Shown: positions 48,236 through 50,419 of the stretch, one piece after another | Layout: each line of letters begins with the position of its first letter | Position numbering within the stretch: the stretch's first letter is position 1 | Origin: Gammaproteobacteria bacterium | GTDB lineage: Bacteria > Pseudomonadota > Gammaproteobacteria > Magnimaribacterales > D2472 | Length of the DNA stretch: 64,000 nt | Reading direction: 5' to 3' | Assembly (NCBI GenBank): GCA_008080945.1 | Contig: VMDH01000017.1 | Location: 271 to 64,270, forward strand | Made by a program: the position numbers and the translations under genes | Notes under the pieces: generated by a model | Database searches by the model: none | Seen by the model: only the letters and a program-made list of their open reading frames with translations | What the model was told of the DNA's origin: nothing

Positions 48236-50419
48236 ATGCAATTAAAGCATATAAAACTTTCAGGTTTTAAAAGCTTCGTGGATCCCACGAGGATATCTTT
48301 CCCTTCAAATATGGTGGCTGTTGTTGGCCCTAATGGTTGTGGTAAATCTAACGTAATTGATGCTGTCAGATGGGTATTAGGAGAATTATCCGCTAAGAAT
48401 TTGCGTGGTGAATCCATGACAGATGTTATTTTTAATGGCACTGATTCTAGAAAGCCCTCTGGGCAATGCAGTGTTGAGTTACTTTTTGATAATTCGCTTG
48501 GCAAGCTTGGAGGCGAGTATGCAAAATTTAATGAAATTTCTGTAAAGCGCTCTATGACCAGAGATGGCCAGTCCAAGTATTCAATCAATAATACCAATTG
48601 CAGGAGAAAGGATATTCAAGATATCTTTCTTGGTACCGGGCTTGGCCCCAGAAGCTATGCCATCATTGAACAAGGCATGGTTAGCAAAATAGTTGGAGCA
48701 AGACCTGAAGAGCTAAGAGTTTATATAGAAGAGGCAGCTGGAACCTCTAAATATAAAGAGCGAAAAAAAGAGACTGAGCAAAAAATTAAAAGCACCAAAG
48801 AGAATTTATCGAGAGTTAATGATATTCGTGATGAGATCAAGAGGCTGATATCTAGACTAGAAAAACAATCTAAGCAAGCTCAGAAGTATCAAGAATTAAC
48901 TCAAGAAGAAAAACAACTTAAGCTAGATCTAGCAATTATTAATATGCTTGAGGCAAAATCAAAAAAAGATTCTATCGAAACTACCATCGTGGGCCTTGAA
49001 AGAGATATTGCCACTAAAAACTCTCAGGTCAGTACAACCCAAGCTAAGATTGATCAAATTAAATTAGAACACAAGGAAACCCTTGATGCTTTTGATGAAG
49101 CTCAAAAAGAATTCTATACGCATCAAGCCGAGATTGCTCGTTACGAAACTAAACTAGAAAATCAAAAAAAATCTGAGGCTTCATTAAAAGAAGAATCTTC
49201 TCAGCTCGCTCAACGAGAGAAGGAGATAAATCAAAAAGTAGTTGATTTTGAGGCTTTATCACCTAGAGAAAAAGCCATTCATCTCTTAGATAAGATTATT
49301 AATGGGATAGATAACCAGAACATTAAAAGTATAGCCATTCAGCTTCGCGAACTTCTTATAGAGATATTAAATATAGCCGAGTCTCAATCTGAAACTATTA
49401 AACAAGAAATAATTAATAGGAAAAATAAGAATCAATCGCAGTTATCAGAAATTGCTACACAAGCAGAAGAAACCTCGGAAAGGCTGTCTTCACTAGCCAT
49501 TTTAAAGGGTAGCTCAGAGGCAAAGCTTAACCAACTCAGAGCAGAGCAATCAAATGTTGATGAGCAAATAAGGACTCTAGAAGGATCTCGTGGGAATATC
49601 GCTCTGGATATAAAAGCATTGGAAGAAAAGCTTAATGATCAAAAATTAGAGCGAAGAACTTTTGAGGTAAATTTAGAGAATGCAAACCAGCTGCTGATTA
49701 AGAACAAAATTGATTTTGAGTCTATAAATCAGCATCAATATGCTGATATGAATAGCAGTGAGCTTGCTGATAATTTAGCATCCATACAATCTAAGATTAT
49801 TTCTATGGGAGCTATCAATCTTGCTGCGCCTGAAGAAATTGAAGCAGAATCCGCAAGATTGGAAGAGCTCAACGAGCAAACTAATGATCTTGAAGAGGCT
49901 CTTGAAAAACTACAGGTGGCAATTAAAAAGATTGATGCAGAATCTAAAGCAAAGTTTGAAACTAGTTTCAATGCAGTTAATGAGAAATTAAAAGAACTTT
50001 TTCCTATTTTATTTGGTGGCGGCAAGGCTGAATTGGTAATGGTAGACGCGAACCCCCTAGATTCAGGGATTGCTTTTATGGCAACTCCTCCAGGAAAGAA
50101 AAATTCTACAATTTCCCAACTATCCGGTGGTGAAAAAGCTTTAACAGCTTTGTCCTTAGTTTTTGCACTTTTTGAACTCAATCCAGCACCCTTTTGCATG
50201 CTTGATGAGGTTGATGCTCCACTGGATGATCTTAATACATTTAGATTTGTAGAAATGGTCGAAAAAATGTCATCAAGAGTCCAGTTTATTTTTATAACTC
50301 ATAATAAAATATCTATGGAAAAAAGTGATCACCTTATGGGAGTCACTATGCAAGAGGCAGGAGTTTCTAGATTAGTTTCAGTTAATGTAAGCGAAGCTCT
50401 AGAAATGGCTGCATCCTAA
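48236..50419 (+). CDS. smc: SMC-family chromosome segregation ATPase, unusually short (727 aa), no recognisable hinge
   Basis: N-head [22 protein letters not shown]. C-head [18 protein letters not shown] and [12 protein letters not shown]. smc-zipA-ligA synteny. Confidence 0.85.
   Translation: [727 protein letters not shown]

Follow-up and report, generated by a model that had tools for sequence, protein, structure and literature searches.

What the hinge and the arm length of SMC proteins contribute is a central unsolved issue in chromosome biology, and the models of loop extrusion disagree on whether contact between hinge and heads and folding at the elbow are needed. Several systems that depart from the canonical architecture have been described. 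The Smc protein of B. subtilis works when the zinc hook of Rad50 takes the place of the hinge, and a B. subtilis mini-Smc with an unsuitable arm length loads at parS and fails to relocate (PMC5344682), indicating that short arms are not automatically functional. The engineered ecJET(core), from which the region between elbow and hinge was removed, has DNA activity only while the ends of its arms are linked by a disulfide, and it cannot bypass obstacles (bioRxiv 10.1101/2025.03.17.643644). Finally, marine Actinobacteria carry a clade of hinge-less SMC proteins (PMC12153180, Environ Microbiome 2025), which was assigned to the Actinomycetes and chosen for its extreme divergence, and for which the authors argued against the status of a paralogue. 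Since the pipeline of that study demanded at least 80% coverage of seeds of roughly 1200 aa, proteins of about 730 aa were not recoverable there. Hinge-less SMC proteins are thus already known, and the statement in our first-pass annotation that hinge-less architectures are not known for canonical Smc is out of date; what is new in the present case is that the protein is gammaproteobacterial, of half length, and modular.

The gene studied here lies in a 64-kb stretch of DNA, to which we refer as the window. Its position among its neighbours is as follows:

47053 to 47436, plus strand: ccmH, upstream synteny anchor (Pfam labels on matching contigs)
47436 to 48212, plus strand: CcmI-like gene, upstream synteny anchor, closing the ccmA-I operon for cytochrome c maturation
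48236 to 50419, plus strand: smc, 727-aa ORF, hinge-less half-arm orthologue of bacterial Smc (TIGR02168, Pfam)
50421 to 51026, plus strand: zipA, 201 aa, directly 3' of smc (ZipA_C, E 2.7e-16)
51030 to 53159, plus strand: ligA, NAD-dependent ligase (ORF; Pfam ligase domains on contigs L019 and L025)

The 727-aa protein is Smc by identity. It reaches 825.2 bits with the TIGR02168 model (SMC_prok_B), for which the curated equivalog cut-off is 567.35. The match is split in two stretches, the first of which places aa 2-364 on profile positions 1-362, and Pfam SMC_N spans aa 3-711 of the 727 residues. The best matches among solved sequences are to the head and neck of B. subtilis Smc (E 1e-106). 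The best match of the modelled fold is 5XEI, the head-coiled coil-joint structure of P. yayanosii Smc (E 2e-30), and the head fold also matches 5H68, 3ZGX and 4I99. The protein is also the positional orthologue of Smc, in the ancestral smc-zipA-ligA slot: The upstream ccm anchors were established from Pfam labels on the near-identical contig L019 and on L016, L018, L020, L025 and L026 together with a tblastn synteny table, and in this table ligA lies about 4.3 kb past the start of smc in the genomes L003, L004 and L006, which encode a canonical Smc. The library sequence P0001 and the window protein differ at two residues.

The two parts of the ATPase head occupy the ends of the gene:

48236 to 48745, plus strand: aa 1-170, N-terminal part of the ATPase head (invariant columns; AF2 gives a beta/alpha fold)
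49826 to 50416, plus strand: aa 531-727, comprising the C-terminal neck helix and the second half of the head (invariant columns; AF2)

The bipartite ABC ATPase head is complete. Its N-terminal half contains the Walker A motif GPNGCGKS (aa 31-38, nt 48326-48349) as well as R57 and the Q-loop residue Q146, and its C-terminal half contains the signature LSGGEKAL (aa 629-636, nt 50120-50143), the Walker B motif with the D-loop (aa 655-664, nt 50198-50227) and the H-loop residue H689. In an alignment of 46 sequences, G31-S38, R57, Q146, S630-K634, D657-D664 and H689 are invariant. Within the hinge-less clade, the mean pairwise identity is 0.82 for the N-terminal head half, and on the C-terminal side the neck reaches 0.61 and the head 0.74. 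The first-pass annotation had described a 727-aa Smc ORF at 48236-50419 with canonical ATPase heads in the gene order smc-zipA-ligA, and all of this was confirmed: the ORF is intact on the plus strand, Walker A, signature and Walker B were found where they had been placed, and zipA and ligA adjoin.

The region between the two head halves is organized as follows:

48746 to 49237, plus strand: N-arm helix, aa 171-334, 164 residues unbroken (AF2)
49238 to 49315, plus strand: apex, 26 residues (aa 335-360) in place of the hinge (AF2 secondary structure)
49316 to 49702, plus strand: returning helix of the C-arm, aa 361-489 (AF2)
49328 to 49378, plus strand: most hydrophobic segment of the arm, aa 365-381, where the returning helix begins
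49703 to 49825, plus strand: joint, aa 490-530, a break in the C-arm helix (AF2; G525/N528 motif)

The hinge is absent from this protein. The SMC_hinge profile (Pfam PF06470) has no match in the 727-aa Smc even at E<=10, and the same profile detects the hinges of all four related controls, i. e. Smc proteins of 943, 990, 1003 and 1169 aa. With 727 aa the protein is unusual, as the great majority of its relatives in the representative library have 1150-1180 aa. We also considered that the apex might be a remnant of the hinge, as MAFFT spread it across the hinge columns, but in HHalign the comparison of the apex with the canonical hinge gave a probability of 0.1-0.2%, which equals the arm controls and thus the coiled-coil background; no hinge remnant was detected. 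In the AF2 single-chain model (pLDDT 82), the helices of residues 171-334 and 361-489 are joined by a loop-helix-loop of 26 residues that caps the arm, in agreement with the earlier statement that there is no room for a hinge. The break in the heptad pattern that had been noted at about 49.25-49.40 kb is real as well, and the 34-residue stretch that marks it corresponds to aa 337-370 (nt 49244-49345).

Both the arm and the joint are present, and the arm has about half of the canonical length of about 330 residues per strand. The N-arm is about 24 nm long, assuming 0.15 nm per residue, and according to the first stretch of the TIGR02168 match it is the head-proximal half of the canonical arm. 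In the strongly conserved neck (aa 171-210), Y173, T180, T187, N190, R193, D196, E200 and L208 are invariant. This conservation extends over hinge-less and canonical Smc proteins, which fits the idea that kleisin binding has been retained. The break at the joint holds two short helices in the AF2 model (residues 499-503 and 507-523), and G525 and N528 are invariant.

A comparison with the known systems reveals both what is shared and what is special. With canonical Smc-ScpAB (B. subtilis; structures of the 3ZGX, 5XG3 and 5XEI type), the window Smc has in common the head motifs, the neck, the joint, the proximal arm and the gene position, but it lacks the hinge toroid and the elbow-to-hinge region: In the alignment, the canonical proteins have 159 extra distal-arm residues after aa 333 on the N-strand and 174 after aa 398 on the C-strand, and they comprise about 1160-1180 rather than 727 aa. 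With the actinobacterial hinge-less SMC (OM-RGC cluster 9), which we compared by description, it shares the head, the antiparallel coiled coil, the absence of a hinge and of a CxxC hook, and an ocean host. However, the window clade is gammaproteobacterial by its synteny and its nearest relatives, and it has half-length forms and a modular arm duplication; the two groups are thus probably different lineages. No rRNA is present in the window, and a ThrRS search placed the DNA no more finely than in the Gammaproteobacteria. As in ecJET(core), head, neck and proximal arm have been kept whereas the elbow-to-hinge "periphery" is gone, and the engineered protein provides a functional model for loop extrusion without hinge-mediated obstacle bypass. 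In contrast to this construct, which was built artificially from a Wadjet defence SMC and is closed covalently by a disulfide, the window protein is a natural chromosomal Smc, and any closure would necessarily be non-covalent via the helical apex. Finally, Mini-Smc and Smc(Zh) of B. subtilis (PMC5344682) resemble it in their shortened arms, the replacement of the hinge by an unrelated dimeriser, and a function that depends on arm length; Mini-Smc retained its hinge and Smc(Zh) has a metal-bridged hook, whereas the window Smc has neither.

The apex is the part of the protein that stands in place of the hinge. It is modelled as a loop (aa 335-342, VVDFEALS), a helix (aa 343-355, nt 49262-49300) and a second loop (aa 356-360, NGIDN), with low confidence of the AF2 prediction at this site (pLDDT <50 over residues 334-341). 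The motif F[ED]xL[SN]P..KA[IM]H[LI]LD.I is conserved across the orthologues of 727, 732 and 995 aa but differs in those of 736, 810 and 827 aa, so that it is not conserved throughout the clade. In the 995-aa form, the pN/pS of the apex is 0.087, which puts it under the same constraint as the proximal arm and under a stronger one than the distal arm modules. The adjoining segment at the start of the returning helix (aa 365-381) has a fraction of strongly hydrophobic residues of 0.57 as compared to an arm mean of 0.26 (sd 0.10), and in four lineages (the window Smc, P0122, P0009 and P0127) the hydrophobic maximum of the entire arm falls at the apex. Its L..IL.IA..QS motif is conserved in addition, and this segment is a candidate for a bundle or dimer-contact surface. 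A CxxC motif is absent from every hinge-less form, and the only cysteines of the 727-aa Smc are at positions 35, 78, 122 and 654. A metal bridge formed by H349 and D352 was considered for the apex and set aside, since the histidine is replaced by asparagine in some 995-aa forms.

We propose that the protein is probably a core-only chromosomal Smc that has kept head, neck, joint and proximal arm, and in which the conserved, hydrophobic helical apex would close the ring. The 727-aa protein would be the chromosomal Smc of an abundant, uncultured and streamlined marine gammaproteobacterium, an ancestor of which dropped the hinge toroid and, on both coiled-coil strands, the distal half from elbow to hinge. 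What is left is the SMC "core", i. e. the full ABC-type ATPase head, a putatively kleisin-binding neck, the joint, and about 164 residues of arm. This arm is predicted to turn via the 26-residue loop-helix-loop, and with the exceptionally hydrophobic start of the returning helix the apex may form a small helical bundle that holds the tips of two Smc molecules non-covalently and thus closes a ring with arms of about half the usual length. Together with ScpAB, such a short ring might still be able to clamp and entrap DNA and to translocate on it or extrude it, and it would do so without the hinge-channel route past large obstacles. The arm of a sister branch was later re-lengthened to 286 residues (995 aa in total) when the proximal module with its joint was duplicated in tandem on both strands. 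Closure of the ring by the apex is suggested by the conservation and composition of this region and by analogy, and we infer likewise that the protein dimerises via its apex, is a partner of ScpAB, and extrudes loops without hinge bypass. A motif scan and the Pfam labels of the neighbouring genes revealed neither scpA nor scpB within the 64-kb window. Two orphan genes at 34662-35447 and 35395-36054, which have no Pfam or NCBIfam match, are of the size of ScpA and ScpB, but both encode signal peptides and the pair was therefore discarded.

An alternative that we regard as rather unlikely is that Smc is functional with its tips unjoined. Two molecules would then be held together by bridging through ScpA, by ATP-dependent engagement of the heads and perhaps by lateral contacts between the rods; the apex would be a stable hairpin cap, and DNA could be clamped by the heads and within the kleisin compartment, without a closed SMC compartment. 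The small size of the apex of only about 26 residues, its low AF2 confidence and its divergent sequence in the forms of 736, 810 and 827 aa would fit this idea, and a three-helix cap would account for the hydrophobic peak just as well. However, a simple cap would have no use for the conserved polar residues H349 and D352, and the constraint on the apex of the 995-aa form equals that on the proximal arm and exceeds that on the distal modules. Moreover, ecJET(core) is inactive once the disulfide at its tip has been reduced, which indicates a need for ring closure, and the matched lengths of the two strands through gain and loss of modules suggest that the arm functions as one unit over its entire length. 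We therefore prefer a ring that is closed by the apex.

This leads us to the arms, the length of which varies in the hinge-less clade. The 727-aa Smc is one length class in a clade with modular arms: Its hinge-less orthologues have 727, 732, 736, 810, 827 or 995 aa, and every length class has the ccmH-smc-zipA-ligase synteny. Two segments of the window Smc correspond to the modules:

48914 to 49273, plus strand: N-side arm module, aa 227-346, which the 995-aa relatives have in two tandem copies
49409 to 49837, plus strand: C-side arm module, aa 392-534, with the joint loop INLAAPEE at its end, likewise in two tandem copies in the 995-aa relatives

In the 995-aa protein P0009, residues 231-350 and 351-470 (N1 and N2) are 42% identical (z=28, and z=34 in a second comparison), and residues 567-691 and 710-833 (C1 and C2) are 47% identical (z=25 and z=35, respectively); no internal repeat was found in the arms of canonical Smc (z -2 to 3). 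The modules of the window Smc are closest to the head-proximal copies, i. e. N1 on the N-side and C2 on the C-side, and the distal modules of the 995-aa form resemble the proximal rather than the distal arm of canonical Smc. In its AF2 model, the 995-aa form has an apex as in the 727-aa form, plus two joint-like breaks. The 995-aa form is thus the short form with a duplicated joint-containing arm module, and the order of events was loss first and duplication afterwards. For the extra segments of the 810-, 827- and 736-aa forms, the comparisons for a distal-arm remnant and for a duplication gave z<=2.5. Throughout the gain and loss of modules, matched lengths have been held on both arm strands. 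We also compared the arms with the natural arm-length modes of 163, 238 and 341 aa reported by Burmann et al.; with lengths, estimated by the definition of these authors, of about 180 residues for the 727-aa and about 310-320 for the 995-aa form, neither falls cleanly on a mode. As a tentative extension of the proposed core-only ring, an abundant lineage of marine Gammaproteobacteria might have, as its sole chromosomal SMC, a natural core-only motor that has a helical-bundle apex and arms that are plastic between about 164 and 286 residues by means of matched two-strand modules.

A different view holds that the protein is a specialised Smc paralogue beside a full-length Smc, MukBEF or MksBEF encoded elsewhere, perhaps with a role in repair (as RecN) or in defence (as Lamassu LmuB or other short SMC-like ATPases). 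Its size and its hinge-free hairpin do resemble RecN and LmuB, and RecN, Rad50/SbcC, MukB/MksB/JetC and LmuB share with it an ABC-type head, an antiparallel coiled coil and a tip other than a hinge. PADLOC matches to mad3 (214 bits, confined to aa 416-723) and LmuB (75 bits) were found as well, yet these scores, like that of JetC (22 bits), are far below the 825 bits for Smc, the equivalog cut-off of which is passed. The RecN model TIGR00634 gives 34.4 bits (cut-off 407.85), the Rad50 models at most 42 bits (cut-offs of at least 700), and SbcC 24 bits (cut-off 478); moreover, the zinc-hook CxxC of Rad50 and SbcC is missing at the apex. Unlike the genes for RecN, Rad50, SbcC, JetC or LmuB, the window gene is in the chromosomal smc-zipA-ligA context between ccm and zipA-ligA, canonical relatives also have smc followed by ligA, and no defence or repair genes were found to flank it. 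Past the clusters of the 995- and 732-aa forms, the next relatives listed are canonical Smc proteins with just 37-52% identity, and there is no close relative of canonical length among the matches listed. In the actinobacterial case, a regular SMC was not found alongside the hinge-less one in single-cell genomes (PMC12153180). Taken together, we consider a paralogue to be improbable, and the core-only housekeeping Smc remains our preferred reading.

The gene of 727 codons is under strong purifying selection. Three orthologues have exactly 2184 nt each without indels or stops; pN is 0.083-0.116 with pS saturated at 0.71-0.75, and pN/pS is about 0.1 in every region. For orthologues with 85-86% identity, pN is about 0.085 and pS 0.71-0.74. 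The protein belongs to a cluster of 168 members from NCBI, JGI, Logan and ENA, nearly all of which have 727 aa, and which are located on dozens of independent contigs, including one of low coverage whose name suggests a long-read assembly. Orthologues of 732 aa (58% identical) and 736 aa (45%) align over the full length, and no internal repeat that could collapse in assembly was found in the 727-aa sequence. A decaying gene or an assembly deletion, both of which had been suspected initially and could in principle have resulted from genome streamlining or from the collapse of low-complexity E/K/Q/L-rich sequence, respectively, is thus refuted by the intact, collinear reading frame, the constraint in synonymously saturated orthologues and the fixed length in assemblies from four sources. 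The other suggestion of the first-pass annotation, a naturally miniaturised SMC, is supported by these data as well as by an apex that is conserved, hydrophobic and not a hinge.

Core-only SMC motors have previously been obtained by engineering only, and the window Smc would be their natural counterpart: The housekeeping Smc of a widely sampled marine lineage, itself under strong selection, would be the near-equivalent, made by evolution, of the hinge-less and elbow-truncated engineered core. If the tentative reading of a sole core-only SMC is true, a chromosomal Smc can function in nature without the hinge toroid and without folding at the elbow, SMC arms are built of repeatable mechanical modules, and hinge loss has occurred convergently in streamlined ocean bacteria, in Gammaproteobacteria here and in Actinobacteria in the earlier study (PMC12153180). 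The protein thus offers a natural test of the core/periphery model. Its compact size of 727 aa may ease structural and single-molecule studies, its apex is a candidate for a minimal dimerisation element, and the series from 727 to 995 aa, which arises by duplication of the joint-containing module, provides a natural means to probe arm geometry against function.

Public records list these hinge-less proteins under the names "RecF" or "AAA family ATPase". The hinge-less forms would therefore escape surveys of how SMC proteins are distributed, and these names point to a systematic error in the annotation of hinge-less Smc proteins.

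The open reading frame at 48236-50419 (plus strand) encodes a 727-aa Smc protein with a complete and highly conserved ATPase head. Pfam SMC_N covers residues 3-711, and TIGR02168, the curated equivalog model of bacterial Smc, scores 825 bits (cut-off 567); this match consists of two stretches, the first of which aligns residues 2-364 with positions 1-362 of the 1181 in the profile. The models for RecN, Rad50 and SbcC stay far below their own cut-offs and those for defence-system SMC-like proteins far below the score of the Smc model, and the closest solved structures, both by sequence and by fold, are head, neck and joint constructs of prokaryotic Smc. 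The motifs and the non-heptad stretch described in the first-pass annotation all lie where it had placed them:

Sequence features of the 727-aa Smc (gene on the plus strand)
aa 31-38, Walker A motif
aa 337-370 (nt 49244-49345), non-heptad stretch
aa 629-636, signature motif
aa 655-664, Walker B motif and D-loop

The neck helices, which are common to canonical Smc, are far more conserved than the remaining arm, and the joint is kept as well. ATPase head, neck and joint are together what recent work terms the SMC core. At NCBI, relatives of 727 aa (P0391, P0397), 732 aa (P0406) and 995 aa (P0036, P0081) are called "AAA family ATPase" or "recombination protein RecF". They bear these names although the 727-aa protein clears the Smc cut-off, and surveys based on annotation would count this abundant lineage as devoid of Smc.

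The absence of a hinge, at first read from the sequence alone, was borne out by profile search: SMC_hinge (Pfam) has no match in the 727-aa protein even at E ≤ 10, yet the same profile finds hinges in Smc relatives with lengths of 943, 990, 1003 and 1169 aa. The 732, 736, 810, 827, 906 and 995-aa forms, too, give no hinge match. Compared with a canonical 1169-aa Smc, about 159 residues of the distal N-arm, about 174 residues of the distal C-arm and most of the 170-residue hinge are missing. What is left of the arm folds as follows in an AlphaFold2 model based on a 46-sequence alignment (mean pLDDT 82):

Predicted arm structure of the 727-aa Smc
aa 171-334, unbroken N-arm helix
aa 335-342, loop of low confidence
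aa 343-355, lone short helix
aa 356-360, loop
aa 361-489, returning helix
aa 490-530, joint-like break with the invariant G525 and N528 motif
after the joint-like break, neck helix leading into the head

In profile-profile comparison, the apex matches canonical hinges with a probability of 0.1-0.2%, which is not above that of arm segments, so the apex cannot be recognised as a leftover of a hinge. A CxxC hook was found in none of the hinge-less forms.

An engineered core-only SMC, the Wadjet SMC without its elbow-to-hinge segment, processed DNA only with a disulfide tying the arm ends, and there was no bypass of tethered obstacles (bioRxiv 10.1101/2025.03.17.643644). B. subtilis Smc tolerates a Rad50 zinc hook in place of its hinge (PMC5344682). 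By analogy, the natural 727-aa Smc should need closure of its tip, and the apex is a candidate for the closing element: its sequence includes a conserved motif (F[ED]xL[SN]P..KA[IM]H[LI]LD.I, followed by L..IL.IA..QS) and the most hydrophobic stretch of the whole arm (0.57 versus 0.26 +/- 0.10), with matching hydrophobic peaks in other hinge-less lineages, and a composition of this kind fits a bundle of several helices better than a coiled coil of two strands. AlphaFold2 models the apex at low confidence. A protein with an open tip, held together solely through its heads, the kleisin and sideways contacts between the arms, is a less likely alternative. We thus favour a core-only Smc with a helical apex. 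Such a protein would dimerise through non-covalent closure of the tip, with arms of about 24 nm if 0.15 nm per residue is assumed; ScpAB would be its presumed partner, and it may extrude loops without the bypass route offered by a hinge channel. As a proposed natural core-only motor, the 727-aa Smc should greatly interest those who study SMC proteins.

The gene stands in the usual genomic position of smc. As had been noted before, zipA and then ligA follow directly 3' of smc. The ccmA-I cytochrome c maturation operon lies 5' of it. The order ccmH-(ccmI)-smc-zipA-ligase is found at the near-identical and the 85-86% identical 727-aa loci and with the 732, 736, 810, 827 and 995-aa forms, and the distance from the smc start down to ligA is about 4.3 kb in genomes with canonical Smc. 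By position, the hinge-less genes are therefore orthologous to ordinary smc. This orthology and the family scores speak against a specialised paralogue that acts alongside another condensin, which we consider improbable. No scpA or scpB was found within the 64-kb window. Two adjoining, slightly overlapping genes (34662-35447 and 35395-36054; 261 and about 219 aa) were rejected as candidates, as both products begin with a signal peptide and neither has a Pfam or NCBIfam match even at E ≤ 10; they are orphan exported proteins, the second of them His-rich.

In neighbour-joining trees of heads and proximal arms, which are simple distance trees, the 727, 732, 736 and 995-aa forms make up one clade that the 810 and 827-aa forms adjoin. 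The 906-aa form (P0189) groups among canonical proteins of 1150-1180 aa and may, judged by sequence, represent an independent and less advanced loss of the hinge; similarity to the canonical distal C-arm persists in its extra C-arm segment (z = 5.1). The source organism is an uncultured, widely sampled gammaproteobacterium; a seawater metagenome is the source of one orthologue, and Tara Oceans sequences occur in another cluster. Natural hinge-less SMCs have a precedent in an abundant clade assigned to marine Actinobacteria, described in 2025 from metagenomic clustering and AlphaFold models (PMC12153180). Since that pipeline demanded at least 80% coverage of seeds of about 1200 aa, proteins of about 730 aa were beyond its reach. 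Synteny and nearest relatives place the present clade in the Gammaproteobacteria; judged against the published description, it is probably a different lineage. Three aspects appear to be new: (i) the half-length form, (ii) the positional orthology of a hinge-less form to canonical smc, and (iii) the loss of the arm followed by its modular re-growth.

Of the two explanations initially offered, a naturally miniaturised SMC and a degenerating gene, the first is supported. The 727-aa cluster has 168 members, nearly all of exactly 727 aa, on dozens of contigs (NCBI, JGI, Logan, ENA), and the gene is exactly 2184 nt long in two species-level MAG orthologues of 85-86% identity (L001, L002). Between 727-aa orthologues pN is 0.083-0.116 and pS 0.71-0.75, and pN is far below pS in each region, the apex included; as pS is saturated, the dN/dS values are to be read as bounds, not as estimates. 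The more distant orthologues of 732 aa (58% identical; the cluster has 45 members, one of which occurs on 54 contigs, Tara Oceans included) and of 736 aa (45% identical) align from end to end. Low pN relative to pS and the multiple independent assemblies refute a pseudogene or an assembly collapse. On the near-identical contig L019 (ctg..._3.43x_l, apparently of low coverage), zipA, ligA and a PreP-like peptidase gene are each split into 2-3 ORFs (12186-18355) and smc is whole; the splits look like sequencing frameshifts, not biology.

The very numerous 995-aa relatives consist of the short architecture plus one added module per strand. Their N-arm repeats with a period of 120 aa (42% identity, z = 28-34) and their C-arm with a period of 143 aa (47% identity, z = 25-35), the latter including a second INLAAPEE joint loop; canonical arms have no comparable repeat (z -2 to 3). 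It is the proximal arm of canonical Smc that the added distal modules resemble (z 3-11), and not its distal arm (z -1 to 4), so the distal arm and the hinge were lost first and the arm was then re-extended by duplication. In the 727 and 732-aa forms, the single modules are orthologous to the head-proximal copies, and since the 732-aa form falls inside the 995-aa group, module number probably changed more than once. In an AlphaFold2 model of one 995-aa protein (pLDDT 75), the N-arm helix spans 286 residues, with lower confidence where the modules join, and there are two joint-like breaks and the same loop-helix-loop apex as in the 727-aa form. All parts are under purifying selection (pN/pS 0.09 for the whole gene, 0.087 for the apex, 0.16 for the distal modules N2 and C1). 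Re-lengthening would provide a bigger lumen. The single-member relative P0028 (1024 aa) is a 995-aa form whose N-terminal head contains, beside the Q-loop, an exact tandem repeat of 29 residues (aa 125-182); this reflects an assembly artefact or else a very recent duplication, which, if real, would probably disrupt the head.

ZipA (50421-51026) has only 201 aa, with an N-terminal hydrophobic segment read from the translation and the C-terminal FtsZ-binding domain at aa 69-186. Its TIGR02205 score stays under the cut-off, and it seems to lack the long charged/PQ linker of enterobacterial ZipA, which may be a further miniaturisation beside the mini-Smc. NAD-dependent LigA follows zipA in the window (51030-53159) and at the 995-aa loci; in the 732-aa lineage this slot holds a 429-aa ATP-dependent DNA ligase (PF01068 and PF14743; L016 6950-8239, also L017 4084-5082), which looks like an in-place swap of the replicative ligase type.

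Elsewhere in the window, the Rfam match "Plastid-psbl-rps4 3'UTR" (9758-9810, minus strand, 69.4 bits, gathering score 68) is exactly antisense to a plus-strand tRNA (9723-9810) and therefore almost certainly spurious. A long co-directional cluster (13330-31192) looks like a steroid or aromatic ring-cleavage pathway. It encodes a BphC/HsaC-like extradiol dioxygenase, two CoA-transferase subunits, enoyl-CoA hydratases, an NMO, two acyl-CoA dehydrogenases, a thiolase, several SDRs, an alpha/beta hydrolase, an FAA-hydrolase, acetaldehyde dehydrogenase, an HMGL-type aldolase and a luciferase-like oxygenase, in addition to:

24113-25465, cytochrome P450
30347-31192, Rieske protein and KshA_C-domain protein

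Two AsnC regulators and an AMP-ligase follow the cluster, which is an unusual cargo in a streamlined marine genome.
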